Origin: a candidate division WWE3 bacterium RIFCSPHIGHO2_01_FULL_40_23
Lineage (GTDB): Bacteria; Patescibacteriota; WWE3; UBA101185; 2-01-FULL-41-18
DNA length: 64,000 bases
Assembly (NCBI GenBank): GCA_001772615.1
Contig: MEUZ01000007.1
Span: 25,146-89,145 of the forward strand
Direction of reading: 5' to 3'
The stretch's first letter is position 1, and each line of letters opens with the position of its first letter. The notes under the pieces were generated by a model that had not been told where the DNA came from, ran no database searches, and saw only the letters and a program-made list of their open reading frames with translations. The position numbers and the translations under genes are program-made. Shown one piece after another: positions 5,527 to 28,926 of this stretch.

Positions 5527-5555
5527 GGTAGAGAGAGAAATTTAGGCCAAAGCGG

Positions 5556-5600
5556 TTACAATGAGTAAATCTTGTAGCCGCTTTTTTTATCTTTTTAAAA
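5556..5600 (+). terminator. rho-independent terminator (agcgguuaca..uguagccgcu stem + U-run) after the large protease gene
   Basis: 10-bp stem with one G-U wobble followed by TTTTTTT. Confidence 0.5.
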
Positions 5601-8668: not shown

Positions 8669-8705
8669 ATGGGAATTTTATCACAACTTTTGACGTAACG
8701 ACTTC

Positions 8706-9416: not shown

Positions 9417-9418
9417 TA

Positions 9419-10186
9419 CTACCTTAAATCTTCCTCCGTTAAGGCCTTGGTTTGAGGGGGTTCTCCCAAGGGTTTTTCCTCAACTTTCTTTACCGGTTCA
9501 ATCTTTGGTAAAACAACTTTTCGCACGGGCGGCTTAGGCCCTTCCCTACCCTTATCTTTCCTTAAAGGCTTATTTTCAACCACCACAGCCACCACCTTCT
9601 TGGGCTCGGGTTTAGGTTTCTCCTGCGATACTAAAGGAGCTTCCTCCAAGGAAGGTTTCGGGAGTTCAACCTTCACAACGCTCTTTGGGGTTTTCCCTGG
9701 TATTGACTCAACGGCTGCAAAAGGCACAAACTTATCATCCAAAGGAAGAAGAACAACTACGGGATCTCCCTCCACACCGCCGTAATGGTTAACCGAAACA
9801 TCCAGAACCCTGTAGGAACCGTCGGAAGTAACGGCATGCCATTTTCCTTCCTTTTTAGCTAAAATCCCTTCAACTCGTAACCTCCTAATCCTTTCAATCT
9901 GTTTAAACCTTTTTTCCCCATTTTCTTCATACTGCTTTAACTTATCCCCATATACCAGAGTTGACTTTGAGGCATAATTCGCCGGAATATCAATCTTTTC
10001 CCCTGCTTCGGTTTCCATATACTCACCCATAAACTTCCCAAGTACCCCAGGCAAGTTTCTCGCTGATGGGATGCCTGCTTGGGCTTCAACTTCCTTCATC
10101 AGATTTTTAGCCTGATTAATGAAATTAACCGCTTGATTTAAAGCATTATTTACTTGCTGGATTTTATGCCGTATGTTTTCTTCCAT
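9419..10186 (-). CDS. hypothetical protein with Lys/Pro/Glu-rich C-terminal low-complexity region
   Basis: ORF only; tightly followed by the VirD4-like gene. Confidence 0.4.
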   Translation of the reverse strand: MEENIRHKIQQVNNALNQAVNFINQAKNLMKEVEAQAGIPSARNLPGVLGKFMGEYMETEAGEKIDIPANYASKSTLVYGDKLKQYEENGEKRFKQIERIRRLRVEGILAKKEGKWHAVTSDGSYRVLDVSVNHYGGVEGDPVVVLLPLDDKFVPFAAVESIPGKTPKSVVKVELPKPSLEEAPLVSQEKPKPEPKKVVAVVVENKPLRKDKGREGPKPPVRKVVLPKIEPVKKVEEKPLGEPPQTKALTEEDLR

Positions 10187-10223
10187 ATTTTCTCCTAAGT
10201 TTCGCAGGCTTACTCAAACTACG

Positions 10224-12788: not shown

Positions 12789-12825
12789 TTCCTCTCCTAA
12801 AGTCCCACTTTTTACTACCCCCGCC

Positions 12826-12852
12826 CTATTTTGGGGCGGGGGTGAAGAAAGG
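12826..12852 (-). terminator. perfect GC hairpin (cccccgccc/gggcggggg) between the LCP-like and VirD4-like genes
   Basis: 9-bp perfect stem, 6-nt loop. Confidence 0.4.
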
Positions 12853-12871
12853 AGAGAGACTTACGGCCACT

Positions 12872-13981
12872 CTACCACATTGAATTAGCATAGTCAATTC
12901 CAGATATTATTGTAATATCGGCCATAAAAGCCTTGAGTCCTTCACCTTCAGGAGAAGCCTGCGGCACCACTTTTTCAATCCCCAACTCTCTTTTTATTTT
13001 TTTTAATGTTTCTGAATCAGTATCGGAAGAGATAATAAAACTTTCATCATAAACATGCGGTGTATTTGATACCAGAACAACCGACCCTCCCATATTTTCC
13101 ACAAACCTTGAGACAAAAGATCCAAGTTTATACGCTTCAGCTCCGTTTAACACAATTACTCTTTTATGCTCCTGTGCAACTCCCCCGTCAAAAAAAACCT
13201 CTCTCACTTTCTTATCAAGAGAGTAATCATCTAAAATATCTTCCTGTGAAAGCTCCGATAACGAAGTTGTCTCTTTGCCTAAACCTCTAAAAAAATTGGC
13301 AAGGAAAAGAATGTCGGTTAGCGAAAGATCAGTTTCAAAGTTTTTTCTTAAATTTTCAAACTCGGAAGGTATTTTTATAGCATTTTCAAAAGACGACAGC
13401 TCAAATAAATCTTCCGAGTCAGAAATTTCAAAAAATCTAGAGACTTCTGCAAAACTTTCTTCATCAGTTAATATATATCTGTCTATTTTTTTAGCGAAGA
13501 TCTTTTCAAGCGTCTTATTAGTTAAATAAACTCCTTTGCCCTCTTCCAAAAGCTGGCCTAAAGCATATACTTTTTCTATCCTCTGCTTCCCAAACCTTTC
13601 AGGAAGATTAAACTCGGATGCAACATTAATATCATAAATGTCAAGCTTTTTATCTTCAGCGTTCCCTGCAAGAAAATAAATACCCTCAACAATGGAGGTT
13701 TGGTCATCTTTATCTTTTAGAACAATAAAACTTAAAGCAAATGAGGAGGTCTCTTCGGCTGTGAAAGTTTCGTTTAAAGATGACGAAGCAGCAAAAGGAG
13801 TTCTTAAAAACTTATAAAAAGACAAAAACGAGATAGTGGCCATTGATATTACTACAGCAAAAAAGGCGGTTGCCACAAGTTTAAAAACCCTTTTTACCCT
13901 AGGGGCAAACTTAATCCCTTTCCATGAGGTTTTTCTTCTTTTATTTAACTTTTTTGACTTAACAGGCCTTTTCCTAGGCAT
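12872..13981 (-). CDS. LytR-CpsA-Psr (LCP) family protein, tentative; basic N-terminus then TM
   Basis: TSIVEGIYFLAGN...KLDIYDINVASEFNLPERFGKQRIEKVYALGQ...IDRYILTDEESFAEV loosely matches LCP core. Start moved to second Met (13981) to abut upstream gene. Confidence 0.4.
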   Translation of the reverse strand: MPRKRPVKSKKLNKRRKTSWKGIKFAPRVKRVFKLVATAFFAVVISMATISFLSFYKFLRTPFAASSSLNETFTAEETSSFALSFIVLKDKDDQTSIVEGIYFLAGNAEDKKLDIYDINVASEFNLPERFGKQRIEKVYALGQLLEEGKGVYLTNKTLEKIFAKKIDRYILTDEESFAEVSRFFEISDSEDLFELSSFENAIKIPSEFENLRKNFETDLSLTDILFLANFFRGLGKETTSLSELSQEDILDDYSLDKKVREVFFDGGVAQEHKRVIVLNGAEAYKLGSFVSRFVENMGGSVVLVSNTPHVYDESFIISSDTDSETLKKIKRELGIEKVVPQASPEGEGLKAFMADITIISGIDYANSMW

Positions 13982-15698
13982 AACTGTGAGCTTTCGCAAT
14001 TTCCGACAAAACTTTTCTGCCCTTTTTGGCATCCCCCATCAACTCTTCAAGTACTATTTCGGACATGGATAAGGACGCTTCAAATTCAGGTTCTATCACA
14101 TCTTTAACTCCCAGACTGTTAAGAACTTTTGCATCCTGCGAGTTTTCGGCTCTGCCTATAATTTTTACACTGGAGGAAATTTTTTTCGCCTTCCTTATAA
14201 TGTACTCGCTTGAGTAAACATCAGGAATTGCCACAACCAAAAGCCTTGCCTCCGAAAGATTGGCAGTTTCAAGAATGTCCTCATCAACAGGGTCTCCGTA
14301 AACAAAAGGCTGTTTGGTTTCAAGGAGAGGATCCAAAACTGAAAAATCATAATCAATAACTACAAAATTTACTTTTGACAGCTCCAAAACCTTCGCTATC
14401 ATCTTGCCCACTCTGCCAAAACCAACAAGAACCACGTGATGTTTAAGCTCCGTTTCCGCCCCGGGAAATGACACAACAGATTTATCAAACCTTGTAAAGA
14501 TAGCATCATATGCTACTCTTGAACGGTTTCTAATTCCTTCTTTCACCACCTTGTAGAATTTCTTGGATGAGGACATAAAATAAGATGTCAGCAGGAGGGA
14601 AATAACGGTTGTTGAAACGATGAGTTGATAAGTATTTTCCGATATTACCCCATGGGAAATCCCGCTTCGCGCCAGAACAAAAGCAAACTCCCCTACTTCA
14701 AGAAGTCCAAGAGAGGCAAGAAATGAAATTCTTGTATGAAACCCGAGATAAGAAACTATCAAAAAAATAACAAGAAATTTTAGAATCAAAACAAATACTG
14801 TTAGAAACACAATCTGTGCCGCATGAGAAACTATAAAAGAAGGGCTTATCAAAAATCCTATTGTCACAAAAAACACAGCTGAAAAAATATCCCTTAAAGG
14901 CCTCATATCTGATCCGATTTCAAACCTCACATAAGAAGCCGATAAGACAACTCCTGCAAGAAAAGCCCCGATAGCAAAAGACTGAAAGTAACTTTCAGTC
15001 AGAATTCCAAAAATTAGAGAGAGGGCAAAACCTCCGACCATCATAAGCTCCTTGGAAGAAAGCCTTGCAAGCCTTTCAAAAAAGAACGGGATAAATTTTC
15101 TACCAAGAAGGAGGATGAGATAACCGATTACTCCAATTTTTAACAAGGCTGTTGAAGCGGTTATTGTCAGATTGCCTTTGCCGTTTGCAAAAATGGGAAT
15201 TAAAATAAACATAGGAATTGTTAAAAGATCCTGCGCGATAAGCCAGCCTATCATCAACTCGCCGTGCAAAGTTCTCGTCTCCTTTGCGTCATTTAAGAGT
15301 TTAAGAACGATGGACGTGGAGGAAAGAGAAATACCAAATGAAAGAATTAAAGAGTCAGTAATCCCCAAATTTAAAAACCTTGAGAAAACAAAAAAGCTTA
15401 TCAGAGCGGTTAGAAAGACCTGAACGCTTGCGCCAATGGTCGCGTTTTTTGCAGTTTTTGAAAGCCTGTCAAGTGAGAATTCAAGGCCTGCCGAAAAAAG
15501 TAGAAGTGCCACACCTATATTTGCAAGGACGGGTATGGTCTGATTTGATCTGATTCTTTCCTGAAAAATTGCCGAAACGACAACGCCTATAACCAGATAA
15601 CCCGCCACAACCGGAAGCTTTAGCTTTCGGCTTATAATTCCACCCACTAAAGCAGCGACGAGTATGATTGTCAGCTCGGTAATCAAAGGCAGGTACAT
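13974..15698 (-). CDS. Kef-type cation/proton antiporter with C-terminal TrkA-N/TrkA-C (RCK) domains
   Basis: ~12 TM segments then Rossmann motif VVLVGFGRVGKMIAKVLE. Confidence 0.8.
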   Translation of the reverse strand: MYLPLITELTIILVAALVGGIISRKLKLPVVAGYLVIGVVVSAIFQERIRSNQTIPVLANIGVALLLFSAGLEFSLDRLSKTAKNATIGASVQVFLTALISFFVFSRFLNLGITDSLILSFGISLSSTSIVLKLLNDAKETRTLHGELMIGWLIAQDLLTIPMFILIPIFANGKGNLTITASTALLKIGVIGYLILLLGRKFIPFFFERLARLSSKELMMVGGFALSLIFGILTESYFQSFAIGAFLAGVVLSASYVRFEIGSDMRPLRDIFSAVFFVTIGFLISPSFIVSHAAQIVFLTVFVLILKFLVIFLIVSYLGFHTRISFLASLGLLEVGEFAFVLARSGISHGVISENTYQLIVSTTVISLLLTSYFMSSSKKFYKVVKEGIRNRSRVAYDAIFTRFDKSVVSFPGAETELKHHVVLVGFGRVGKMIAKVLELSKVNFVVIDYDFSVLDPLLETKQPFVYGDPVDEDILETANLSEARLLVVAIPDVYSSEYIIRKAKKISSSVKIIGRAENSQDAKVLNSLGVKDVIEPEFEASLSMSEIVLEELMGDAKKGRKVLSEIAKAHSYA

Positions 15699-17301: not shown

Positions 17302-19320
17302 TTATACAGCCCTGACTGTGAAGTAAAATGTAGAGCCTTTGCCGGGCCCTTCGCTGTAAACCCCTACCTTGCCGCCCATAGCCTCCACAATTGATTTTAC
17401 AATATATAAACCTAAACCAGTACCCCCCGATTCCGCAGCCGTCACAAAAGAGTTATCAAGCCTGCCAAACTTGTGAAAAAGTTTTGGAAGGTCATCCTTT
17501 GATATCCCTTTTCCCGAATCGGCAATGGAAACCTTAACTTCCTTCCCGGAAGCTTCCGCAATGATATGAACAAAACCTGTGTCACAATATTTAAAAGCAT
17601 TACCTAAAAGATTAATAATGACTTCTCTTAATTTGTCTTCATCCGCCCTGACTTTTGGAAGATTGTTATCAATAAGAAGCTTAAAATCAAGACCCTTTTG
17701 CTCCGCCTTAATTCTAAAATCGGAAGCAATTTCAGCTAAAACAGAAGAGAGATCAACCTGCGTCGGATGAAGTTCAAGCTTGCCCTGCTCCATCCTTGAT
17801 ATATCAAGCATGTCATGAATAAGCTTTATCATTCTTTCGGTTCCGGCGTAAGCTTTTTCCACATACTCGCCTTGTTTTGGAGTAAGATCCCCTCCTTTTT
17901 TATTTTCAAGCATCCAAAGATAGTTTTTTATAATGGTCATGGGCGTTCTTAACTCGTGTGAAGCAATTGAAATAAACTCTTCTCTTGCCTTTTCGGCCTT
18001 AATCTCATCAGTAACATCCGAAATAATCACAACATAAACATTTAAATTCTTTTCAACAATGACTTTAGAAGCAGTTAAGTTAACATACCTCTCTCTTCCG
18101 TCAGGTCTTTTCAATACAAGATTGGTTAGTTTAGTTCCCGATTTAAACTCAAGCAGACTCTTTATTGAATCACCTGTAATCTTTTGATTTTTAGCGTCAA
18201 AAAGATTGACAATTTTACCAAAGAATTTTCCTGAAGCATCCTGCTCGGTAAAAGTTGTTAAACTTTGTGCGGCTCTGTTAAACAAAAGAATTTTTGTTTC
18301 GGCGTCACAAACAATTACAGCCTCCGTTATGTTATATAAAAGGGCTTCAGCCTTCCTCTTTTCCTGTATAAGTTCAAGATTTTTCTTATAAATCTGCTCG
18401 TTTATTCTTGATAAGAGTTGATCCCTTTCATGAAGCTTTATGTTTGCTTCGTGAAGCTCTTCCTCCCTTTGCCTTAAAAGCAAAGAAGGATTTGTAAAAA
18501 TCTCAAGCGGGACTACATCAATATTTAATGCATTTGTCCCAAGCGTGACTAGGGTGAGCATAGTAAGATACATAAAATCAACGAAGTTCCCATTATAAAA
18601 AGTACCGTAAGTTGTCTGATGGGCAAAAAACATGTCGGCAAGGAAAGAAACAACTAGACCAAACGAAAGCATTAAAACCGAAAATCTAATCTCCCCTTTT
18701 AGATGGGAGAGAGCTAGGGCGTCAACTATGAGAATTAGAATTAAGAGCACTACATCCCAAAGGGGATATGAGATGTCAAAAAAAAGTTTGATTACATTTG
18801 TGCTTAATTCAAATGTTGACCCTCTGGCAAAGACAAATAGCAGATAGTAAGAAATGGTTACAACAAGTATCGGGATAACGAGAATTATTACCCGTGTTAC
18901 TTTGTTCTTAAAAGAAATGCGAAGGCCTATTCCTCTTGCTAAATACATGATGCCAAATGACCAGAAAAACATGGTTAAAATGAAGGAAGCGTCCGCAAAA
19001 GAAGGATAAGGAACTTCTACATTTAAGATGAGGTTATAAAAGGACCAGGTGGACTCCCCTACTCCCCACGCAATAAGGCCTAAAGAGAAATAAACGACGG
19101 CTCTTATTAAGTTTTTGTTTGATTTATCGGTTCTGTTAATTAGCCTTATTAAGCTGTAAATACCACCGAAAAATGGAACCAAACCATAAAAGAAGGCAAA
19201 CCAGTAGTTTAAGGGGTCGTCTGTCGTACCTAAAATCTGGATATATGACCACCAAAAGGCAAGGAAGATGAAAGAGGCAATTACAAGTTTTGAGGCAAAA
19301 TTAAACTTAACATCTTTCAT
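17302..19320 (-). CDS. sensor histidine kinase: N-terminal ~7-8 TM module, PAS, HisKA, HATPase_c
   Basis: H-box ASHELRTPM; G-box GTGLGLYIVKSIVEAMGG; PAS-like region. N-terminal ~280 aa paralogous to the ORFs at 19658 and 22403. Confidence 0.85.
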   Translation of the reverse strand: MKDVKFNFASKLVIASFIFLAFWWSYIQILGTTDDPLNYWFAFFYGLVPFFGGIYSLIRLINRTDKSNKNLIRAVVYFSLGLIAWGVGESTWSFYNLILNVEVPYPSFADASFILTMFFWSFGIMYLARGIGLRISFKNKVTRVIILVIPILVVTISYYLLFVFARGSTFELSTNVIKLFFDISYPLWDVVLLILILIVDALALSHLKGEIRFSVLMLSFGLVVSFLADMFFAHQTTYGTFYNGNFVDFMYLTMLTLVTLGTNALNIDVVPLEIFTNPSLLLRQREEELHEANIKLHERDQLLSRINEQIYKKNLELIQEKRKAEALLYNITEAVIVCDAETKILLFNRAAQSLTTFTEQDASGKFFGKIVNLFDAKNQKITGDSIKSLLEFKSGTKLTNLVLKRPDGRERYVNLTASKVIVEKNLNVYVVIISDVTDEIKAEKAREEFISIASHELRTPMTIIKNYLWMLENKKGGDLTPKQGEYVEKAYAGTERMIKLIHDMLDISRMEQGKLELHPTQVDLSSVLAEIASDFRIKAEQKGLDFKLLIDNNLPKVRADEDKLREVIINLLGNAFKYCDTGFVHIIAEASGKEVKVSIADSGKGISKDDLPKLFHKFGRLDNSFVTAAESGGTGLGLYIVKSIVEAMGGKVGVYSEGPGKGSTFYFTVRAV

Positions 19321-19363
19321 TGGATTTATTCTAAGTTACTTTGTGGGTAAATTCTAGTAAAAA

Positions 19364-19648
19364 CTACCTTAAAATGTCAGGAAGAATCTCCTTCTGGTCC
19401 CCTACAACTGCCGAAACTGCCTCTCTGCAAACTTCCACCGATACTCTTCCGAATAACGAGGCGTACTGCTTTACAAGACCTTCAAGGACAGCTTTCCCAT
19501 CACCTGTAATCGTTGCTGTTTTGCCATCAGATGAAATATTAAGTCCGGGAACCTTATTCGCCTCCTCTATTGCTACAGGTCCTATGATCAACTCCTGCTG
19601 GGATATTATAGATTTTACAAGATTTTCAAACTGCCCATTCATACACAA
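19364..19648 (-). CDS. small hypothetical protein (~92 aa)
   Basis: ORF packed between the membrane-module paralog and the HK. Confidence 0.4.
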   Translation of the reverse strand: MCMNGQFENLVKSIISQQELIIGPVAIEEANKVPGLNISSDGKTATITGDGKAVLEGLVKQYASLFGRVSVEVCREAVSAVVGDQKEILPDILR

Positions 19649-19657
19649 ACGACTAAA

Positions 19658-20482
19658 TTAACTAGAGCCACTCCTAACACTATCGGAATACTTGACATCT
19701 AAAGCATTCGTGCCATAAGTTAATAAGAACATAGCAGAAGCGAATAATAAGTCTACAAATCCCCCATTGTAAAAAGTTTCAACAGTAGATTGATACGATA
19801 AACCCATATCAGCGAAGTAATTAACAACGAAACCCAAAAGTATTAAGGTTATTGGAAACTTGAACCTTCCACCAAGAAAACCAAATGAAAGACCGTAAAC
19901 CAGTAGTACTAGGGTTAATAGTATTACATCCCAAATAGGATAGAGCAAATCAAAAAACAATTTTAAATATTCAGAAGAAAGATCAATCGTAGAGTCCCTC
20001 GCAACAACGTAAAGCAAGTAATATGATGCGGATATTACTAAAAAAGGAACAACTAAGAGAAGAAGCTTACCTCTAACATTCCTCAAAGAGAACTTAATCC
20101 CAGTTGCTTTTGAAAGGTTTATAACACCCATAGACCATAGTGGCCAGCTCAAAATAAAACTAGCGTCAGCTAGCGATGGGTAAGGAATTTCTACGTTTAA
20201 TCCCAAAATGTAATAAGACCATATCGTCTCTCCAATTCCCCAAGTTATCAAACCTAATGAAAGATAGAGAACTGCGCTGCCCATTGCACTCTTAAAAGAG
20301 CCCCATTTTCTTGATAGAAATAACCCATTAATACCCCCAAATAGAGGAACAAGACCGTAGGCAAATACAAACCAGTAATTGACGGGAGAATCGGTTGTTC
20401 TCAAAAACTGAATATACAACCACCAAATAACCAAAAGAATATAAGAAGCAAGAAGAAGCTTAGTTGCTTTACTCTCAATCAC
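19658..20482 (-). CDS. stand-alone multi-TM membrane module, paralog of the HK N-terminal domain
   Basis: Shares WW..YIQ, NYWF.F.YGLVP.FGG, NVE(I/V)PYPS(L/F)ADASFIL, TFYNG.FVD motifs with the HK N-terminus. Confidence 0.7.
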   Translation of the reverse strand: MIESKATKLLLASYILLVIWWLYIQFLRTTDSPVNYWFVFAYGLVPLFGGINGLFLSRKWGSFKSAMGSAVLYLSLGLITWGIGETIWSYYILGLNVEIPYPSLADASFILSWPLWSMGVINLSKATGIKFSLRNVRGKLLLLVVPFLVISASYYLLYVVARDSTIDLSSEYLKLFFDLLYPIWDVILLTLVLLVYGLSFGFLGGRFKFPITLILLGFVVNYFADMGLSYQSTVETFYNGGFVDLLFASAMFLLTYGTNALDVKYSDSVRSGSS

Positions 20483-21290
20483 TTTTTTTGAAACCTGAGG
20501 CTAAAATTATACTTTCGTATCCAATCTCCTTATGCTCAGGTACTTTCTGTACCATTATATTCACAGTCGACATGTCAAAGTCAAGGTTAACAAACAAGTT
20601 ATTAAAATCACCCTCTCTAAGGTTCGCACAGGGAAAAAATCTTTTACCTACCTTATAATACCTACAATCCCTCAAGGCGGCGGTAACAAAAAAACCTCCT
20701 GGTTTTAATAAGGACAATATATTAACCATGTAGTCATGCCAAACCTCTCTGGAATTGGTTGCGCTATCGGCACAATAACATGAGAGCATAAAACTATAGT
20801 GACTCAAACCATTCCCTAATAACGGAGCTTTATTACTTGCATCGCATAATATGTATTTTGTGATCTTTTGCCTAGTCAGCTCCTCTCTTCTTTCTATATC
20901 AGAATCAGTTGGTTCTAGGTTACCTTCATACTTCAAGATAAGTTCTGTGAAAGGCTTCCAGTTATGCATCCCGACCTCTTTCTGCTGCCATTTCTTTATC
21001 TCCGAGAGATTGGTTTTCAGATAATCCGCAACATGTATTTCCGCCACGTAAGGGCTCAGAGGAAGAATATGATGAAGAGTCGGTCCCGCACCAAATTCCA
21101 ATGCTATAGGGTTCTCCCTAATCTTCTTAAATTCATCCACAAGGAATCTTAAAGTATATCTTTCATCTTGCTCAACATAACCATAATAGTCCCTCAGGTA
21201 ATCAGAGGGTGTCCACTTATCAAACCCTGACAGAGTCAACTTATTCGTCCTCAAAATGGGTGATATTTTACTTCTTAAAGGTTTAGACAT
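20475..21290 (-). CDS. NNMT/PNMT/TEMT-family SAM-dependent N-methyltransferase
   Basis: Matches human NNMT blocks: PSDYLRDYYGY (vs PRDYLEKYYKF), EFGAGPTLHHIL..HVADY...EIKKWQQKE (vs DIGSGPTIYQLL..VVTDY...ELEKWLKKE), LLKPGGFFVTAALRDCRYYKVGKRFF (vs [26 protein letters not shown]). Start at internal Met MSKPL (21290), 2 nt from upstream stop. Confidence 0.75.
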   Translation of the reverse strand: MSKPLRSKISPILRTNKLTLSGFDKWTPSDYLRDYYGYVEQDERYTLRFLVDEFKKIRENPIALEFGAGPTLHHILPLSPYVAEIHVADYLKTNLSEIKKWQQKEVGMHNWKPFTELILKYEGNLEPTDSDIERREELTRQKITKYILCDASNKAPLLGNGLSHYSFMLSCYCADSATNSREVWHDYMVNILSLLKPGGFFVTAALRDCRYYKVGKRFFPCANLREGDFNNLFVNLDFDMSTVNIMVQKVPEHKEIGYESIILASGFKKSD

Positions 21291-22389
21291 ACACAACCCC
21301 CGGTACAGCAAACCCGTTAAAGGGAGCGGCATAAGCTGTCGTATAAGCCGCACAGTTCATAATAAACACTTTATCTCCAATCTCAACACATCCAAGATCA
21401 GTGCTCTCCGAAACTACGTCAACGCTGTCACAAGACGGCCCTGCGATAGTCACAGCGTTCACATCCTTGTTTCCAAGTACCTTAAATTCATATTTATATC
21501 CTTGGACCGTTTCCATCAGAGCGTTAAAAACTCCGGCATCAATATAAACCCATCTCTCTGAACCTCTTTTAGCAATGCCTACAACTGTGCTTACCATAAT
21601 ACCAGAGTCACCTATCAAACCTCTCCCAGGTTCGATTGACACTCTCAGAATCTTGGATCTGTCAAAATATTTATCCAAAGATCGAGTGATAACCTTCCCA
21701 ATCTCCCTCATTGACGGAACATTTAAAGTTTGCCTAATTGGCAAACCGCCACCTAGACTTAGGAAACCTAACTGTGTGCGTTTTCCAAAATTCTGAAACC
21801 AAAACTCAGAGCTTAATTTTATAGCGCTCTCCCAGCTACTCTTATCGCGACACTGTGATCCCACGTGAAACGTTAACCCATAGACAATAAGTTTCCTTTC
21901 GTTACAATAAGAAATTAACTCTTTTGCCTCCCGAACAGTTACTCCGAATTTCTTTGTTAATGGCCAGTCACTACCTTTATTCTCTACTTCCAATCTCAGC
22001 ACAAGCTTGGCACCTGGGAAATATCTTAATACCTTATCAACTTCATCAAATGAATCGAAAGCAAGGATGTTTATATCTTCATTTCTAAGTACCCTTATGA
22101 AAGAGGGAGTTTTAATAGTGTGCATGCATATAATTTTTTTTGAGGATACACCCATTTTCTTAAGCACTTTCAATTCACCCTCAGATGCAATCTCAAAGCC
22201 TGATCCTTCTCGATCAAGAATTCTAACTATCTCCGAATCGTGATTAGCTTTCAAGGCGTAGTATACCTCCATCCCGGGCAAAGCCGTGCTAAGAGTTTTA
22301 AACTTCTTACTTATGCTTCTAATATCAATTGCTAAAAAAGGGGTTTCCTCCGTTTTAGACAAACTTCTCAGTGTTTTGGTTATGCGCAT
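21283..22389 (-). CDS. Orn/Lys/Arg/DAP decarboxylase, fold-type III PLP (eukaryotic ODC-like)
   Basis: VYYALKANHD (PLP-Lys), GFEIASEGE, GGGLP, IEPGRGLIG, AGPSCDSVD (catalytic Cys), AAYTTAYAAPFNGF. Confidence 0.8.
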   Translation of the reverse strand: MRITKTLRSLSKTEETPFLAIDIRSISKKFKTLSTALPGMEVYYALKANHDSEIVRILDREGSGFEIASEGELKVLKKMGVSSKKIICMHTIKTPSFIRVLRNEDINILAFDSFDEVDKVLRYFPGAKLVLRLEVENKGSDWPLTKKFGVTVREAKELISYCNERKLIVYGLTFHVGSQCRDKSSWESAIKLSSEFWFQNFGKRTQLGFLSLGGGLPIRQTLNVPSMREIGKVITRSLDKYFDRSKILRVSIEPGRGLIGDSGIMVSTVVGIAKRGSERWVYIDAGVFNALMETVQGYKYEFKVLGNKDVNAVTIAGPSCDSVDVVSESTDLGCVEIGDKVFIMNCAAYTTAYAAPFNGFAVPGVVYV

Positions 22390-22402
22390 GGATCTCCTAA
22401 AT

Positions 22403-23368
22403 TTATAGGAATGATATCACAGAAATAATTAGACAAAAACCTGGAAAAATATATGAGAAGAAATTATCACTCTCTATAACATTAAGACAGAACTCCCTTA
22501 ATGTTTGGATTCTGTAAACATAATTAACTCCATTGAATCTCTCTTCCGTGCTGGCCAAGGGAAACCAATAATCAACGGTTTCACAAATTCCGAGAAAAAG
22601 TAGAAATGCGTAGCTAACATAAAAAAGATCCACATAACAACCATTAAAGTAAGTATTATTCATACTAGTATTAAAAAACAACAGATCTCCAATAAACAAA
22701 AATAAAAACGCTGAAGTTAAAAGAAACTTTGCTTTTTTATTTAAGTGGTCTACCAAATAGTTAGATGCAAATATAAATAAAGTTAGTATCAAAATTAAAA
22801 TCAGAATGTCCATTGTAACGTAATAATAGTTTAAAGTTAACCTCAAAGTTTCCAGCTCAAGAGGAGATTTTGAAAATTTAATAGCAGTCGTAAGTACAAC
22901 CGGGGAAACTGACACAAAAACACTTAATATTCTTAAGGTTCCAATTACGCAAAATTTTAACTTCTCGCTCTTAAAAAACTTGTTGGAAAGTAACTTTCCT
23001 AAGCCTATAAAAGTTGCGGTATAGCTAAAAGAATAAAATACATCAGCGTATGATGGGAAAGGCACCTCTATACTTAAGAAGATGTTATAGACAGACCACA
23101 CGACGTTACCTAAACCCAGTAGAAGCAATCCAACACCGAGCAGTACTAATGCAGTTTTTCGTACCTTATTATAGGTATAAACCTTTGAAGTCCTACTTAT
23201 ATGGTAGACAACCAAAAAAACAGCTAAGACCAAAAACAGGGCCCAAAAAAAACCGAACAGGCTGTTATTCAACCCTCCCCTACTCCCTGAAAGATAGAGG
23301 GAGAGCCACCAGACCAAAATGGCTAAGTACAAACCGGTAATAAAATTTATACTGTTTTTAATTGTCAT
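22403..23368 (-). CDS. stand-alone multi-TM membrane module, third paralog of the HK N-terminal domain
   Basis: Shares SIEVPFPSYADV and TYFNGCYVDLFY blocks with the other two copies. Confidence 0.65.
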   Translation of the reverse strand: MTIKNSINFITGLYLAILVWWLSLYLSGSRGGLNNSLFGFFWALFLVLAVFLVVYHISRTSKVYTYNKVRKTALVLLGVGLLLLGLGNVVWSVYNIFLSIEVPFPSYADVFYSFSYTATFIGLGKLLSNKFFKSEKLKFCVIGTLRILSVFVSVSPVVLTTAIKFSKSPLELETLRLTLNYYYVTMDILILILILTLFIFASNYLVDHLNKKAKFLLTSAFLFLFIGDLLFFNTSMNNTYFNGCYVDLFYVSYAFLLFLGICETVDYWFPLASTEERFNGVNYVYRIQTLREFCLNVIESDNFFSYIFPGFCLIISVISFL

Positions 23369-23726
23369 GGTCGGGCTAGGATTATAATTATCTTATACAT
23401 AATAATCATAGTTAATGCAACTCTCTTCGTACTCTCTAAAACAGCTTAAACACCCTACTAAACTCCAGAGTTCAAACGTCCTTACTTCTGCCACCCGCCG
23501 CCCGCCTGTTGGCGGATGGCGGAGTCACACAGGGACGGAATAATCGAGTAATTGAGACTCAAATCACATTCAAATACTTGCAATAACCTCACAACCATTG
23601 GCCTATAAATAAATACTATTAGAAGTAAAAACTCTTTACATTATAATAATCGGTATGATAATAATTAATACAACTAGAACAAAGGTTGCAACCACTCTAG
23701 TAAACCGTGCAAAAAGGAGAGATAAA

Positions 23727-23918
23727 ATGTGCGGACCTGATTTTTCCACCTATCCTTTCGCTGAAGATCCTCCCGATCAAACACCGGAGGAAATCGCGAA
23801 ACTGTTTGAGGAGTCCTCCGCCGAAGAACCCACAGAAGACGGTATCGATTGGACCAGCGAGGAAGAGAACGAAGGCTGTAGTCCATATCCCGACTTCCGA
23901 TGGGTTTATTATGACTAG
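23727..23918 (+). CDS. small highly acidic protein (64 aa) with aromatic-rich C-terminus (FRWVYYD)
   Basis: Strong RBS AAGGAGAG 8 nt upstream of ATG; GC-rich coding relative to genome. Confidence 0.5.
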   Translation: MCGPDFSTYPFAEDPPDQTPEEIAKLFEESSAEEPTEDGIDWTSEEENEGCSPYPDFRWVYYD

Positions 23919-23972
23919 TGGAAGGCCCCGCAAAAAAATCACGCCCTAAGGCACAGGAGGTGAGACAACAAA

Positions 23973-24155
23973 ATGTATATCGATCCGGAGGACGAAGAGG
24001 ATCATTCTGATGATGATCGGGATGACTGGAAGGACCGCTTCAACGAGGGATTAAGGTTTGCATCCCTGGCTGATGTAGAAGAGGTCGGGGGAGGCGGAAC
24101 GGACGATGAATGGGAAACCTATTACATCGCCGATCAGTACGCGAGGCAGGGCTAA
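23973..24155 (+). CDS. small highly acidic protein (60 aa) with aromatic-rich C-terminus (WETYYIADQY)
   Basis: RBS AGGAGGTGA upstream; GC-rich. Confidence 0.5.
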   Translation: MYIDPEDEEDHSDDDRDDWKDRFNEGLRFASLADVEEVGGGGTDDEWETYYIADQYARQG

Positions 24156-24222
24156 AGCCCGCAACTTGCCAGGTTGGAACCCTTCTCTAAAGATTGATGG
24201 GAGAAGGGTTCCAGCAAATATT

Positions 24223-25221
24223 ATGATGCCGTCTGCAGCTGAAGTCAAAGAAATATTACTCTTTGACACAATTAATGAGGACCAAAATATTGCTCACTTA
24301 ATGGAGCATTGCCTTGCCGCCCACATTCATATTAATAATCCTAAAGCTCACTCAAGCGGTGGCTTCCATGCGGGTACGAATCCGAAAGGAATGTACTTGA
24401 TCTTTGAAAAAGAGGATTTTGTCAAATTTGACACGTTTCCAGACCTTGCACCCTTTATAGACCATCAGAAAAAAAGGTTGTATTTGGAGAGCATAGAAAG
24501 CATCCTCGTAGGCTCAAAAATAGTTGAGATATACGTAAGGCAGAACTGCTTAACATATAAAGAGGTTCTTGACAGATTTGACAAGTTCCTCAAATTGGAT
24601 ACTGCTGCAATAATAAAATCTTTTAAAAAAATTTACGCTACTAAAATAAAAATAAGCTCTATCAGTCAAACTTTGAATTTTAAGCCTATAACAACGTCGC
24701 AAAAGCAAGTTCATAGTATAAAAGTTCCGAAGTTTCAGCCTCTGCTTGACATATTTGAAATCTCTATTATGCTTCCCATGACTTTGGAATCACTTGCCTA
24801 CTGCGAAGCAATAAAGCTTTTGGCTTCAATGAACTTTTCCCCGATCCTTGCCCAGAAAACACTATTACACACAAATAGCGGAGGTGCCTCCATGTCTGTG
24901 AACAGCCTCTTTATTACGTACTCGTATAAAACTCTTAAAGGAGACGGGGAAAATACTAAAAATGTCTTCTGGGATCTTATAAAAAACGCACGGCATCTGG
25001 ATATTTACGTCAGCATTTGGAAAGAGCGAGAGTCCGAAAAAGCAAGAAAGACTTGGGAAGAGAATATCTTAAGGAGGGAACATATTTTCTCACTATTAAG
25101 ATTTGGCCACATTCTTACAGAAAAAGAAATAAAAGAAGTGGACAGCCAAAAAATCGTTAAACTTCACCATGAGGTAATTTCAAACCCCAACAGGTTTGTT
25201 ATTGAGCTGACTGACTTCTAA
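24223..25221 (+). CDS. hypothetical protein with inverted zinc motif HxxEH (AHLMEHCLAAH), possibly a divergent M16-like subunit; start uncertain (24106 or 24223)
   Basis: HLMEH resembles the M16 HxxEH; no other M16 blocks confirmed. Confidence 0.4.
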   Translation: MMPSAAEVKEILLFDTINEDQNIAHLMEHCLAAHIHINNPKAHSSGGFHAGTNPKGMYLIFEKEDFVKFDTFPDLAPFIDHQKKRLYLESIESILVGSKIVEIYVRQNCLTYKEVLDRFDKFLKLDTAAIIKSFKKIYATKIKISSISQTLNFKPITTSQKQVHSIKVPKFQPLLDIFEISIMLPMTLESLAYCEAIKLLASMNFSPILAQKTLLHTNSGGASMSVNSLFITYSYKTLKGDGENTKNVFWDLIKNARHLDIYVSIWKERESEKARKTWEENILRREHIFSLLRFGHILTEKEIKEVDSQKIVKLHHEVISNPNRFVIELTDF

Positions 25222-25587
25222 AATCATTAAAATAATGCCTAAAGCCACAAAAAAATCGGCAATATTAAAAACCGAAAAGGAAAAGAAAGGTATAAAATCA
25301 ACCACTTTCCCCCCATAAAAAACCCGGTCAATCAAATTACTCACTCCCCCACCGATAACAAACCAGTAAGAAAAAGACTCACTCACATTCCTAAAAAAAT
25401 AAGCAAACACAAGAATAAGGCATAAAACAAGAAAAAGGTTAAAAAAAGAGCTCCAGTAAGACCCTGTCCCAAGCATAAAACCCATGTTAAAGCTCACAAT
25501 ATCAGGAAAAAGCCTTAAAATTAAAAATTTAGAAAGCCTGTCAATAAAAATAACAAAAAAGCAAAAATAAAAGGGATGAAACTTCAC
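25180..25587 (-). CDS. lspA: lipoprotein signal peptidase (signal peptidase II)
   Basis: VIGGGVSNLIDR, KVVDFI, FNIADFFVALG conserved LspA blocks. Confidence 0.8.
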   Translation of the reverse strand: MKFHPFYFCFFVIFIDRLSKFLILRLFPDIVSFNMGFMLGTGSYWSSFFNLFLVLCLILVFAYFFRNVSESFSYWFVIGGGVSNLIDRVFYGGKVVDFIPFFSFSVFNIADFFVALGIILMILEVSQLNNKPVGV

Positions 25588-25593
25588 AAGAAC

Positions 25594-26607
25594 TTACTCC
25601 TGCCGTGACTTCTCCGCACATTCCAAACACATAGTAGCCTGCGGAAAAGCTTTTAACCTTGCGGGATCAATCGGTTTGTGGCAAACTTCGCAAATTCCGT
25701 ACGTCCCTATGTTAATCTTTGCCAAGGCCTTTCTGATCTGAAGCCTCATTTCGGATATTGACTTTGACAAAATGCTTGTCATCTCATGGGATGTATCCTC
25801 AAAGGCCTCATCAGCCTCCTCATTGTTTAAAACGTCCCTCTCGGGAAGGTTATACGCATCTTCCTTTTTTAAAAGCGTTTCTTCTTTGGCAAGTTCTTTA
25901 TCTTTTCTTAACAAAAGATCCCTTATATTTTTAAGAAAATCCTTGGAAATAGGAGAAGCTAATTTCATTTTCCTGCCCTTTAATCTGTGGACTAATACTA
26001 CTAATCCAAGTGTAAACAATGCAGACAAAAATATCAAACTTTTCTTTTCAATAAAAAAGAGCCCGAGGATGAAGCTAACCAGCATCAGGCCAATCCCAAA
26101 AATCCCGCCGTAAACAAAGCCGTTTTTCCTTAAGTTTAAAAGAAGCACATGTATCAAAACCAAAAGCCCAAAAGCAATCAAAAACTCATACATATTTTTA
26201 ACAAGTACAAAATACAAAATAACAAAAGGAATAGCCGCCGATGCGGAAAGAGCAAAAACATCTGTAACACGCGGCATTGACCACTTTTTCCCTCTTACAA
26301 GAAGGTATCCTGACAAAACCAACCCCGCCCCTACTCCATTCAAGTCAACACCATAAGTCCAAAACCTTACCGTATGCATAAAAATATCAGCAGGAAAGGA
26401 AAATTTTTCCAAAGCGTAAACAAGCCTTCCTGAAAAAATAGCCAAAATTACACAAGATAAAACCAAATCAAAGACCTGCTCTTCTTCAAAACCTTCCTTT
26501 TTGGCCTCCCTCCAAATCACGTACATAAAAACAAAAAAGCCGAATATAAGAAAGAGACTTAGAGTATAAATTTGAATGGATCCTATTTGAAAATTTTGAG
26601 GTATCAT
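25594..26607 (-). CDS. membrane protein (Lgt-like N-terminal region, tentative) fused to C-terminal DksA/TraR C4 zinc finger
   Basis: C-terminus CEVCHKPIDPARLKAFPQATMCLEC fits the DksA/TraR pattern C-x2-C-x3-I-x3-R-x4-P-x4-C-x2-C exactly. ~6 TM N-terminal. Confidence 0.6.
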   Translation of the reverse strand: MIPQNFQIGSIQIYTLSLFLIFGFFVFMYVIWREAKKEGFEEEQVFDLVLSCVILAIFSGRLVYALEKFSFPADIFMHTVRFWTYGVDLNGVGAGLVLSGYLLVRGKKWSMPRVTDVFALSASAAIPFVILYFVLVKNMYEFLIAFGLLVLIHVLLLNLRKNGFVYGGIFGIGLMLVSFILGLFFIEKKSLIFLSALFTLGLVVLVHRLKGRKMKLASPISKDFLKNIRDLLLRKDKELAKEETLLKKEDAYNLPERDVLNNEEADEAFEDTSHEMTSILSKSISEMRLQIRKALAKINIGTYGICEVCHKPIDPARLKAFPQATMCLECAEKSRQE

Positions 26608-26610
26608 AAA

Positions 26611-27873
26611 TTATAAAGAGAGAAGGCTGTTAACTTCCTCTTCCTTTACCCTTCCGACAACGGCAAGATTAAGACCATCACTCACAAAAACCTCGGAAAC
26701 AACTTCGGAAATATCAGAAAGATTAACCTTTTCTATTTCCTTAACATAATCCTCATAAGACAGTACTTTTTTGGAAAGAAGTTCCTGTTCAGTCAGAAAT
26801 GAATTCATATCATGATGGCTCTCAAACTTTAACGCAAGGAGCCCTTTTAAATGCTCTTTACTGCGCCTAAGCTCTTCCTTTTCCACTCCCTCCGACTTTA
26901 TCTTGTTTACTTCTTTTATAGTTGCATCAATAGCTTGGAGAAATTTCTCATTATTAACACCAGCCGCTATGAAAAAGGCTCCGGTATCCATCAAAGATCT
27001 TGATGACGCTTTAATGTAATATGCAAGCCCAAGCTCCGTTCTTATCTTTTGGAACAAGCGCGAGGAAATACCGCCTCCAAGAATCATAGATACAAGCTTA
27101 AGAGTTATTCTTTTCTTGTCATCCTTTGGATAGCCTCTGAAGCCAAAACACAAATGGGACTGCTCCGTTTCTCTTGATTCAACTATTAACTTCGGTTCTT
27201 TCTGAACTCCGGAAAGAGGCTCGTAACTTCTTAACTTCCCATCGGAAACTTTCAAGAAAGCTTCCTTTAAAAGACCTAAAGCCTGTTCTTCATCAAACTT
27301 TCCCGAAAGCCCTATCACCATATTTGATGATTTATAAAAATCGTCTTGGTAAGAGGTAAAATCGTCGCGTGAAAATGAGGAAACTGTCTCTTTAGTACCA
27401 CATATAAACCTTCCAAGCGGGTGGTTTGGCCACATTACCTTCTCCAAAAGAATCCCGACTTTATATTCCGGCATGTCATTGTTCATATTTATCTCTTCAA
27501 TAATTACCCCTTTTTCCTTTTCTATTTCTTGCGGCAGATAAAGCGGGTGAAAAAGCATCTGATCTAAAACATAAACAATATCTTTAAGATGTGATGACTC
27601 CGCCCTGATGTAATACTCAATATGTTCATTTCCTGTCCCTGCGTTCCAGTCCCCGCCGAAGCCTTCCACAAACTTAGACAGCTCAAACTGCGATTTAAAG
27701 GCTTCACTTCCCTTAAAAGCCATGTGCTCAAGGAAATGCGCTATGCCGTTATTTTTCTCGTTTTCATATCTGGAACCAGCTTTCACATAAATAGAAAGAT
27801 TTACTGATTTTGAATCTTTTGAGGGTACTAGAAGAATCCTGATATTATTTTTCAAGGTAATTTTTTTATACAT
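26611..27873 (-). CDS. M16 (pitrilysin/insulinase) family zinc peptidase
   Basis: GIAHFLEHMAFKGSE HxxEH motif; 420 aa typical M16B. Confidence 0.85.
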   Translation of the reverse strand: MYKKITLKNNIRILLVPSKDSKSVNLSIYVKAGSRYENEKNNGIAHFLEHMAFKGSEAFKSQFELSKFVEGFGGDWNAGTGNEHIEYYIRAESSHLKDIVYVLDQMLFHPLYLPQEIEKEKGVIIEEINMNNDMPEYKVGILLEKVMWPNHPLGRFICGTKETVSSFSRDDFTSYQDDFYKSSNMVIGLSGKFDEEQALGLLKEAFLKVSDGKLRSYEPLSGVQKEPKLIVESRETEQSHLCFGFRGYPKDDKKRITLKLVSMILGGGISSRLFQKIRTELGLAYYIKASSRSLMDTGAFFIAAGVNNEKFLQAIDATIKEVNKIKSEGVEKEELRRSKEHLKGLLALKFESHHDMNSFLTEQELLSKKVLSYEDYVKEIEKVNLSDISEVVSEVFVSDGLNLAVVGRVKEEEVNSLLSL

Positions 27874-27893
27874 ATTTTTAGGTTGACATAGGG

Positions 27894-28451
27894 TTATGCG
27901 CGCTCAATATACTCCCCTGTCCTTGTGTCAACCTTAATCTTATCACCTATGTTTATAAAGGCAGGAACTTTAACTTCGGCTCCTGTCTCTATTATGGCGG
28001 ACTTGTATACATTTGTAACCGTATTTCCTTTAAAACCGGGCTCTGTATAAGTTACTTCAAACGTGGCGCTTGGCGGCAATTCAACGGCAATAGGATGGTC
28101 TTCGTAAAAGACTATCTGCGCTGTTTCACCTTCCTTTAAAAATCCGCTTACCTGGGAAAGAATCTTTCCCGAAACAATCTCCTGCTCATAAGTTTTCGGA
28201 TCCATAAAAACAAAGTTGTCCCCTTCTTTATATAAATACTGGGCGTTTCTTCTATAAACATCCCCTTCCTCAACGGTGAGGTTACTGTGCCAGCTTCTTT
28301 CTATAATTGAATTTGTTAGAAGATTTTTTGCTTTAACTTTTATGTAAGCTCCCTGCCTTGCAAGTTTTATCAGCTCATATTTAAGGACAAGATAAGGATC
28401 ACCGTTTTCCTTAAAGACGGATCCTGTTCTTAACTCTGTGACATTTAGCAT
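27894..28451 (-). CDS. efp: elongation factor P
   Basis: MLNVTELRTGSVFKENGDPYLVLKYE; 185 aa. Confidence 0.9.
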   Translation of the reverse strand: MLNVTELRTGSVFKENGDPYLVLKYELIKLARQGAYIKVKAKNLLTNSIIERSWHSNLTVEEGDVYRRNAQYLYKEGDNFVFMDPKTYEQEIVSGKILSQVSGFLKEGETAQIVFYEDHPIAVELPPSATFEVTYTEPGFKGNTVTNVYKSAIIETGAEVKVPAFINIGDKIKVDTRTGEYIERA

Positions 28452-28840: not shown

Positions 28841-28926
28841 TGGTGCCGTGGGTGAGAGTCGAACTCACACGGGGTTGCCCCCAATGGTTTTTGAGACCAT
28901 CGCGTATGCCATTCCGCCACCACGGC
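28841..28926 (-). tRNA. tRNA-Leu (anticodon CAA), class II with long variable arm, genomically encoded CCA
   Basis: Minus-strand GCCGTGGTGGCGGAATGGCATACGCGATGGTCTCAAAAACCATTGGGGGCAACCCCGTGTGAGTTCGACTCTCACCCACGGCACCA: 7-bp acceptor, anticodon loop CTCAAAA, T-arm GAGTTCGACTCTC. Confidence 0.85.

Follow-up and report, generated by a model that had tools for sequence, protein, structure and literature searches.

In the genome of candidate division WWE3 bacterium RIFCSPHIGHO2_01_FULL_40_23 (Patescibacteria), which derives from groundwater at Rifle, two adjacent open reading frames (ORFs), ORF2 and ORF3 (Table 1), form a conserved two-gene module in which a small, acidic protein is paired with a compact protein predicted to have the fold of the M16 metallopeptidases. 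Both lie in a 64,000-nucleotide (nt) stretch of contig MEUZ01000007.1, referred to here as the window. The comparison covers seven lineages, represented by the window and by the related loci L011, L012, L063, L070, L062 and L065–67, and in 7/7 of them a small ORF is found 0–120 nt upstream of the ORF3 homologue on the same strand. Neither gene was found without the other among the loci recovered, and the pairing persists despite rearranged surroundings in L063, L065–67 and other relatives. Given the homologues, the purifying selection and the conserved pairing, we conclude that the association of ORF2 with ORF3 goes beyond chance.

The module is rare, and no description of an acidic mini-protein paired with a compact M16 protein was found in the literature. 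It bears on the biology of the Candidate Phyla Radiation (CPR), in whose bacteria most lineage-specific genes lack an assigned function, and in which annotation regularly misses small proteins or calls them wrongly. The strict pairing with a family of disordered, polyacidic mini-proteins also supplies a natural candidate for the substrate or regulator of the peptidase.

ORF3, a compact protein with a predicted M16 fold

The M16 peptidases are characterised by an HxxEH motif, a more distant Glu that is carried by a later helix of domain 1 and provides the third zinc ligand, an Arg/Tyr (R/Y) pair, and a four-domain, clam-shell architecture (PMC12731061). ORF3 had been described in a preliminary description of this DNA as M16-like, from an AHLMEH sequence that is found at residues 24–29. 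This reading is supported by an AlphaFold model whose structural matches are confined to the M16 fold, and by an invariant HLxEH motif and downstream Glu.

Gene callers give ORF3 either 371 or 331 residues, several of them using a start at 24106 that overlaps ORF2; alignment with the homologues puts the true start of the gene at 24223/24226. When 5.8 billion proteins were searched by word index, ORF3 matched the same strain only. With phmmer, run exhaustively against 1.84 billion representative proteins, five full-length relatives (315–324 residues, 24–34% identity) and one fragment were recovered; the size of the family is taken from this single-sequence search, and an alignment-based search recovered two of the same relatives. 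Across the lineages the identity within the family ranges from 22 to 34%.

The positions that are invariant in the family alignment are His25, Leu26, Glu28, His29 and Cys30, which make up an HLxEHC motif (HLMEHC in ORF3, residues 25–30, with the His25 codon at 24295–24297), together with Lys83, Arg85 and Glu89; the second half of the protein carries a K236-x3-G-x-G motif. His25, Glu28 and His29 are invariant in 7/7 sequences, the fragment included, and Glu89 in 6/6 full-length members. Glu89 belongs to a QKKRxxxE motif in a predicted helix (residues 76–96) that resembles the E(K/R)xx(V/I)xxE of the M16 enzymes. It lies 60 residues past the HLxEH motif, compared with ∼77 in M16, and its putative role as a zinc ligand rests on the sequence and the predicted helix.

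The AlphaFold2 model calculated with the seven-sequence alignment has a pLDDT of 89.1 and a pTM of 0.86; prediction from the single sequence gave a pLDDT of 33. When the model was compared with the PDB using Foldseek, all of the top 50 matches were M16 peptidases or bc1 core proteins, with a probability of 1.0, the best being 3eoq_B (E 3.6e-10, TMq 0.65). Thermus TTHA1264/1265, MPP-beta, IDE and PqqL are among the structures matched, and a search of a viral structure library returned M16 and poxvirus G1-type peptidases.

Sequence profiles do not reach this relationship. Neither ORF3 nor its homologues match PF00675 or PF05193 at E≤1, and ORF3 has no match in Pfam, NCBIfam, PADLOC or PHROG. The profile evidence that the preliminary description had sought for 24223–25221 is thus wanting, and it is the predicted structure that points to the M16 fold. 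BLASTP aligned only the motif region, NEDQN-IAHLMEH of ORF3 with NEKNNGIAHFLEH of the neighbouring canonical M16 protein; a profile search of PDB sequences gave MPP-beta at E 0.13, and hhalign comparison with the canonical M16 protein gave a probability of 1%, which is not significant.

We conclude that ORF3 represents, as judged from its model, a new and highly divergent clan-ME family with an M16 fold, and that it is not a member of the Pfam M16 families. Its retention of HLxEH and of the distal Glu suggests that it is probably catalytically active. The protein would work as a dimer, since one M16B-type chain corresponds to half of the clam shell. M16 chains normally have 400–1000 residues; a conserved version of ∼320 residues in which the catalytic motif is retained would represent a minimal scaffold for this fold, and it would also be a new clan-ME family that the profile databases have missed.

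ORF2, the acidic small protein

ORF2, annotated as the hypothetical protein A2716_00360, has 21 Asp/Glu residues against 5 Lys/Arg, an isoelectric point (pI) of ∼4 and an aromatic-rich tail, ..WETYYIADQYARQG. Members of its family have 49–72 residues and a core of the form R.EG..FA..ADVEEVG..GG..GDEEEYV..QW, in which FAxxADVEEVG is followed by a Gly-rich turn and by GDEEEY[VIL]xxQ[WY]; Glu48 and Tyr51 are invariant within it. The full core is present in five small proteins, those of the window, L011, L012, L063 and L070. Searches with tblastn from ORF2 gave E-values of 8.8e-8 (L011), 2.3e-7 (L012) and 1e-5 (L063), and L070, which lay outside the tblastn search, is placed in the family by its motif. 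Conservation covers the centre and the C-proximal core, with a variable N-terminus and a variable extreme C-terminal tail, in a set of seven sequences that is too small to define leader and core segments. All members of the family are predicted to be disordered from a charge-hydropathy plot.

The source strain is found in more than 20 assemblies that are 99.9–100% identical across the module region, and ten same-strain contigs that were compared show few differences, all of them singletons or located at contig ends. This near-identity precludes a within-species dN/dS. Between homologues of ORF2, non-synonymous differences (pN 0.17–0.46) are fewer than synonymous ones (pS ∼0.8, saturated), giving pN/pS of about 0.2–0.55, and amino-acid identity is 0.77 in the ORF2 frame compared with 0.33–0.38 in the other frames. 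With constraint on the protein sequence and saturation at the synonymous sites, these substitution patterns indicate that ORF2 is a real, conserved gene under coding constraint. The preliminary description had looked to homologues and constraint as the check on its small ORFs; ORF2 has both and always stands beside an ORF3 homologue, and for the other small ORF, ORF1 (see below), no homologue was found.

The small ORF is preceded by a near-perfect Shine-Dalgarno (SD) sequence in the window, and GGAGGTGAG-like sequences are found before it in six lineages counting the window, with a weaker SD in L012 and L063.

No relative of the ORF2 family was found in Pfam (E≤10), in NCBIfam or among PDB sequences, and ORF2 has no paralogue elsewhere in the window. 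A word-indexed search with ORF2 matched the same strain only. Degenerate-DNA scans for FAxxA[DE]VEEVG in metagenome and genome collections gave 49 loci, all of them chance matches in GC-rich genomes, and the related contigs are evidently missing from these collections. Checks against DUF-type small proteins, toxin-antitoxin families and defence systems gave no support for membership. A Pup/UBact-type tag was also considered and rejected: there is no Pfam match at E≤10, the C-termini are variable (RQG, DDDE, DQD, NDG) where Pup has GGQ/GGE, and no PafA/Dop-like ORF was seen among the annotated genes of the window.

The intergenic hairpin

The interval between ORF2 and ORF3 contains a hairpin with a folding energy of −28.7 kcal/mol (z −4.9) and a perfect 13-nt inverted repeat (Table 1). 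It is the best-conserved DNA of the module, being 93% identical between the window and L070, where the flanking coding DNA is 46–58% and the spacer 36% identical. In L011 both bases of two stem pairs have been replaced (C-G to A-U, U-A to C-G), compensatory changes that leave 16 pairs intact. All 16 pairs are kept in three loci (16/16), a covariation that with three sequences is not statistically decisive. Equally strong hairpins of unrelated sequence occupy the same place in L012, L063 and L065, and a hairpin is found at this position in 6/7 loci (z −3.7 to −7.2), the exception being L062.

Across the loci the hairpin ends 7–22 nt before the start of ORF3, a gap too short for ORF3 to have a promoter of its own. 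No SD was found before ORF3 in 4/5 intergenic sequences; only L063 has a GGTGGG, ∼13 nt upstream. A run of U residues follows the stem in L065 only. The hairpin at 24173–24215 matches no Rfam family, and the window contains no second copy of it. As a structure that is better conserved than either coding region, it is a candidate cis-regulatory RNA that would act as an attenuator, a processing site or a block to ribosome access. Together with the missing ORF3 SD, it would keep the amount of peptidase low compared with that of the small protein.

Function of the small protein

We favour the reading that the disordered acidic protein is the dedicated ligand of the mini-M16 protein, most likely its substrate, with a probability of about 0.4. 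M16 chambers take unstructured peptides of up to ∼65 residues, selected largely by charge (PMC12731061), and an unstructured chain of 70 residues or fewer, as in the ORF2 family, fits this size limit. The reading is favoured because M16 chambers accept such chains, because 4/6 of the peptidases in the ORF3 family are basic (pI 8.3–9.1), and because the gene layout implies many small proteins per enzyme. The ORF2 protein would be made in excess from its near-perfect SD, captured electrostatically by the ORF3 chamber, and cut in the cytoplasm.

Several observations weigh against a substrate role. The other 2/6 peptidases are near-neutral (pI 6.7–6.8), so that not every pair is complementary in charge. 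The L062 genes share an 8-nt overlap and lack the hairpin, an arrangement that looks more like stoichiometric coupling. The small proteins of L062 and L065–67 resemble ORF2 only in their position and in an acidic run followed by a Tyr/aromatic end, and their BLAST similarity is not significant. The Arg of the R/Y pair, which clamps the substrate in M16 enzymes, is not conserved in the ORF3 family; a column at His216 keeps His or Tyr where hhalign equates it with LRTxxxLGY, in a mapping taken from a non-significant alignment. Only seven loci represent the family, and for five of these the contig is less than 5 kb long. Finally, a strongly expressed acidic small protein encoded upstream also fits an inhibitor, a chaperone or an antitoxin-like partner.

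It is possible, and nearly as likely as the substrate role, that the acidic protein is a regulator of the peptidase. As a trans-acting pro-segment, inhibitor, chaperone or antitoxin-like partner, it would fill the active-site cleft and silence a cytoplasmic protease until removed. Pairs of protease and inhibitor, like type II toxin-antitoxin pairs, usually have a small, acidic and disordered protein encoded upstream of a larger enzyme and translated better than it, and the module, with its mostly basic peptidases, matches this layout. The strict pairing, the 8-nt overlap in L062, and the concentration of conserved residues in one contiguous core, resembling a binding motif with variable sequence at both ends, point in the same direction. 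However, the small protein has no DNA-binding domain, neither partner matches PADLOC or a known toxin-antitoxin family, and what separates the genes in 6/7 loci is a strong hairpin and not translational coupling. In three WWE3-like lineages, moreover, the chromosomal surroundings of the module are loosely conserved, unlike those of a hopping toxin-antitoxin pair, and no viral or PHROG relatives were found. Searches for membership of a type II toxin-antitoxin or anti-phage system gave no significant PADLOC, Pfam or PHROG family, and the viral scans were empty.

The preliminary description had instead raised the possibility of a precursor-processing module. In such a reading the acidic proteins would enter the pathway of a ribosomally synthesised and post-translationally modified peptide (RiPP) or a peptide cofactor, with tailoring enzymes unlinked to the locus. 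Its premise is well established: M16 enzymes are proven leader peptidases of RiPPs, as in PttP1/P2 and AlbE/F (PMC10885120; PMC12731061), and RiPP proteases can be encoded away from the other genes of their cluster (PMC8960859). A short gene beside an enzyme gene, as expected of a RiPP precursor, is found in 7/7 loci, where the ORF2 family lies directly upstream of the peptidase, and the invariant Glu48 and Tyr51 are a loose echo of the Glu/Tyr of PqqA. The order of small gene, hairpin and enzyme gene is, moreover, the layout of pqqA-pqqB and of lantibiotic operons, which speaks for the substrate role too.

Gene content argues against a RiPP pathway. No radical SAM, YcaO, lanthipeptide synthetase, ATP-grasp or RiPP recognition element protein is encoded within 10 kb on either side of the module. 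The remainder of the window, from which 30 more large ORFs were checked, has none either, nor do L063 and L065–L067, the longer of the related loci. The search for radical SAM and YcaO enzymes that had been suggested thus came back empty for the 64-kb window; CPR genomes are very small, and it is this 64 kb of the source genome that the search covers. The spacing of the conserved pair is E-x-x-Y and not the E-x-x-x-Y of PqqA, there are no pqqB-E genes in the window, and no NCBIfam precursor family is matched. The only PqqF-related matches, TIGR02110 in NCBIfam and PF22456 in Pfam, are both weak and both to the canonical M16 protein, which is unlinked to the module in L065/L067. With the tailoring enzymes missing from 64 kb and the canonical M16 protein lying outside the conserved module, the locus does not qualify as a RiPP cluster, at least within this stretch, and we regard a RiPP or peptide-cofactor pathway as unlikely. 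The interpretation in the preliminary description is thus borne out in part.

A doubtful extension of the substrate role is a self-contained system of peptide maturation in CPR bacteria, in which an abundant, disordered, polyacidic pro-protein would be cut by its own mini-M16 to release a Glu/Tyr/Trp peptide (..GDEEEYVxxQW..). Were this so, the released peptide would be a signal, an effector or a cofactor precursor in host-dependent, ultra-small cells, and the hairpin would be a specific RNA control element that sets the ratio of substrate to enzyme. The module would then make a ribosomal peptide product of a new class, with the protease as the sole enzyme dedicated to it.

Nucleic-acid mimics typically show extreme acidity and disorder, and this suits a reading in which the two genes are co-transcribed and functionally independent. 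The acidic protein would then be a DNA or RNA mimic, an anti-sigma-like factor or a metal buffer, and ORF3 a general peptide-clearing peptidase. A scavenger of signal peptides, the role that PreP has in organelles (PMC12731061), would be in keeping with a peptidase gene placed near lgt, lspA and genes for type IV pilin processing. Against this, the 7/7 pairings survive at 22–34% peptidase identity despite rearranged surroundings, the best-conserved DNA of the module is the hairpin that lies between the genes, and neither gene was found alone. DNA mimics or anti-sigma-like factors had been offered as an alternative in the preliminary description; nothing was found in support of either, and independence of the two genes is quite unlikely.

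Comparison with known systems

The ORF3 model has a two-domain α/β fold in common with the bacterial M16B proteins TTHA1264/TTHA1265 of Thermus thermophilus (PDB 3EOQ, 7V4Y) and BH2405 of Bacillus halodurans, and with MPP beta (E 1e-9 to 1e-10, TMq 0.55–0.65). As in these proteins, HxxEH opens the first long helix that follows a β-strand, and a conserved Glu is placed, in the ORF3 model, on a later helix of domain 1. The M16B chains are longer, however, with 400–450 residues compared with ∼320 in ORF3, and have the wider spacing of the distal Glu (∼77 against 60 residues after the motif). ORF3 differs further in its invariant Cys directly after the motif (HLxEHC), in the lack of conservation of the R/Y Arg, in the absence of a PF00675/PF05193 match, and in the small acidic gene that is always found upstream.

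The system formed by PqqA and PqqF/PqqG resembles the module in that a tiny peptide gene is linked to an M16 peptidase and that the peptide has a conserved Glu and Tyr. In the pyrroloquinoline quinone (PQQ) system PqqA is produced in larger amounts than the enzymes and is processed by an M16 enzyme; ORF2 would likewise be made in excess and processed. The dimensions are very different: PqqA has ∼25 residues compared with 49–72 in the polyacidic ORF2 family, and the PQQ peptidase ∼700–760 compared with ∼320 in ORF3. The ORF2-ORF3 pair also lacks genes for PqqB, C, D and E, and has E-x-x-Y in place of E-x-x-x-Y.

AlbE/AlbF, which act on subtilosin A, and PttP1/PttP2, which act on class III lanthipeptides, illustrate the dedication of an M16-fold enzyme to one cognate short precursor (PMC10885120; PMC12731061). 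These enzymes are heterodimers of full-length M16 chains, found in or correlated with clusters that have radical SAM, lanthipeptide synthetase or other tailoring genes, whereas ORF3 is a single short chain with no such enzymes in 64 kb. The poxvirus G1-type metalloendopeptidase (M44, clan ME) is like ORF3 in having a divergent HxxEH motif, in being missed by M16 profiles, and in being recognisable mainly by its fold. It differs in its size (∼590 residues), its viral origin and the absence of a small acidic partner, and its structural match to ORF3 is weaker (TMq 0.35).

ORF1 and the GC-rich patch

The preliminary description had placed two SD-preceded acidic ORFs with aromatic tails in tandem. 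Both are present, the first of them (ORF1) with 63 residues and not the 64 originally given. ORF1 has 19 Asp/Glu against 2 Lys/Arg and the tail ..DFRWVYYD. Gene callers assign it 87 or 63 residues, and the shorter form is favoured because of a promoter-like site at 23635–23662. All six frames are open across the GA-rich ORF1 stretch, so that an open frame is weak proof of a gene here. In its correct frame ORF1 has no match in Pfam, NCBIfam, PADLOC or PHROG.

It was considered whether ORF1 might be a diverged duplicate of ORF2, and this was ruled out by hhalign against the ORF2 family (probability 0.3%), by tblastn, and by a search with the ORF2-family alignment profile (A4), which did not match ORF1 even at E≤10. 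The presence of ORF1 can be judged in L011 and L065 alone, since the remaining related contigs extend upstream past the small ORF by no more than ∼50–250 nt. Neither of the two has a counterpart: in L011 the small ORF is preceded, at a distance of 137 nt, by the end of lspA, and in L065 the 414 nt in front of the module are without one. The picture of a tandem pair of precursors therefore fails, ORF1 being without detectable homologues, absent in the two judgeable relatives and unrelated to ORF2. We treat it as an ORF without a detectable relative, an unverified candidate gene.

At 90% identity ORF1 clusters only with strain variants (C52W, C52F, Y61F). In assembly L007 (position 1478) a G23733T change turns codon 3 of ORF1 into TGA, and a C24233A change gives S4Y in ORF3. 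Each of these changes, like the Trp/Phe variants at Cys52, was seen once, in a contig that is short or of low coverage, and may be an error.

The GC excess of the acidic ORFs reported in the preliminary description is confirmed, at ∼51% compared with 41% for the window: GC is 0.51 in ORF1 and 0.52 in ORF2, a local rise from about 0.38 to 0.52, and GC at third codon positions is 0.57 in ORF2 against a median of 0.36 for long ORFs. A similar excess over the small ORF is seen in every related locus (0.47–0.58 compared with 0.36–0.43). Because it recurs in each relative, it reflects the composition of the gene family and not foreign DNA. We conclude that the patch is a by-product of Asp, Glu, Gly, Ala and Pro codons, with GC-rich third positions added in some lineages including the source, and that it is no sign of horizontal transfer. 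A GC-rich patch in an AT-rich genome can thus reflect Asp/Glu/Gly/Ala codon composition.

The opposite view, that the patch is foreign or mobile DNA, or is non-coding with open frames produced by its GA-rich composition, could appeal to the climb in GC from ∼0.38 to 0.52, to the six open frames over ORF1 and to the lack of ORF1 homologues. The same GC excess in all related loci, the purifying selection on the ORF2 frame, and the absence next to the patch of flanking repeats, an integrase or viral, plasmid-like or defence relatives speak against it. This view is highly improbable overall; it is largely refuted for ORF2 and ORF3, and stands for ORF1.

Genomic neighbourhood

The preliminary description had set the AHLMEH protein beside the acidic ORFs, with lspA, a DksA-type membrane protein and a canonical M16 protein with HFLEH nearby, and all of these are found in that arrangement (Table 1). 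The promoter-like site upstream of ORF1 would drive ORF1, ORF2 and ORF3 as a single transcript, and a consensus scan found no other plus-strand promoter-like site between it and the ORF3 start.

Table 1. Features of the module and its surroundings, numbered from the first nucleotide of the window
Feature	Position	Strand	Description
GC-rich imperfect hairpin	23495–23522		CCGCCGCCCGCC tgtt GGCGGATGGCGG; between ORF1 and the divergent gene for a 321-aa membrane protein
Promoter-like site	23635–23662	+	TTTACA, 16-nt spacer, GATAAT; 10/12 positions; consensus match only
ORF1	23727–23918	+	Candidate gene, 63 aa; ATG at 23727, stop at 23916–23918; SD AAGGAG 7 nt upstream; pI ∼4
ORF2 Shine-Dalgarno	23955–23964	+	AGGAGGTGAG, near-perfect; GGAGGTGAG-like in 5/6 aligned relatives
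ORF2	23973–24155	+	60 aa, acidic, predicted disordered; homologues, coding constraint
Stem-loop	24173–24215	+	16-bp stem: GUUGGAACCCUUCUCU, 11-nt loop, GGAGAAGGGUUCCAGC; ends 7 nt before the ORF3 ATG
ORF3	24223–25221	+	332 aa, two domains, predicted M16 (clan ME) fold; HLMEHC at 24295–24312; Glu89 at 24487–24489
lspA	25180–25587	−	PF01252
Membrane Lgt-N-terminal/DksA-TraR zinc-finger fusion	25594–26607	−	Family-library matches
Canonical M16 with HFLEH	26611–27873	−	PF00675 and PF05193

ORF3 and lspA are convergent, and their 3′ ends overlap by 42 nt (25180–25221) with no terminator-like structure between them. The canonical M16 protein, which is encoded 1.39 kb from the end of ORF3, itself has both HFLEH and the R/Y pair. 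In the window, L011 and L063 the module is placed differently relative to a block of efp, M16, lgt/dksA and lspA genes. In L065/L067 the module adjoins type IV pilus genes, and the canonical M16 protein is absent from the 10 kb upstream of it. The canonical M16, lspA and lgt/dksA genes are only loosely syntenic neighbours that lie outside the conserved module. The canonical M16 protein was considered as an obligate partner of ORF3 and was ruled out, as the L065/L067 module is without it and it has its own HxxEH motif and R/Y pair.

In a distant clade, represented by L066, the mini-M16 gene is followed by a second pair (2640–3996), made up of a 58-residue basic small ORF and a 347-residue HExxH (HELGH) protein for which no informative family or PDB match was found. 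The start of a homologue also follows the module in L062 (1612–1773). The L066 pair may be a second small-protein/metallopeptidase module.

The Lgt/DksA fusion protein (335–337 residues) combines the N-terminal half of prolipoprotein diacylglyceryl transferase (Lgt; profile positions 2–121 of 240) with a C-terminal DksA/TraR C4 zinc finger. It is encoded beside lspA in three lineages: the window (25594–26607, minus strand), L011 (767–1774) and L063 (4589–5596). A scan of the genome collection with the fusion found nothing.

The canonical M16 gene goes with efp and not with the module. The two genes are 20 nt apart on the same strand (26611–28451, minus), with M16 downstream of efp, and the pairing is repeated in L063 (2721–4586). 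The best NCBIfam matches of the canonical M16 protein are YfmF/YfmH ('EF-P 5-aminopentanol modification-associated'), at 113–122 bits compared with cut-offs of 250–285. The loop of elongation factor P has the sequence KLARQGA, with Arg at the position where the Bacillus Lys is modified.

The imperfect hairpin at 23495–23522 has a folding energy of −32.3 kcal/mol (z −3.2 over 23470–23545). It matches no Rfam family, occurs once in the window and is followed by a U-run on neither strand; no counterpart was seen in the related loci, and no evidence ties it to the module.

Further upstream (17302–23368, minus strand), multi-pass membrane proteins of 321 and 274 residues are paralogous to each other and to the N-terminal membrane part of a 672-residue PAS/HisKA kinase, and have homologues in L063. 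These paralogues flank an ornithine/DAP-decarboxylase-like gene and a methyltransferase gene of the NNMT/PNMT family; their L063 equivalents flank genes for an AdoMet decarboxylase and an LPG_synthase_C protein.

The region 2242–14032 encodes a 1094-residue S8 subtilase with a fervidolysin-like prodomain and a β-propeller, a tyrosine recombinase/integrase (5587–6540) and an 854-residue TrwB/VirD4-HerA-like ATPase (10224–12788). An integrated or conjugative element is a possible explanation for this stretch. A tRNA-Leu(CAA) gene at 28841–28926 on the minus strand accounts for the second local peak in GC (0.54–0.59), near 28.8 kb.

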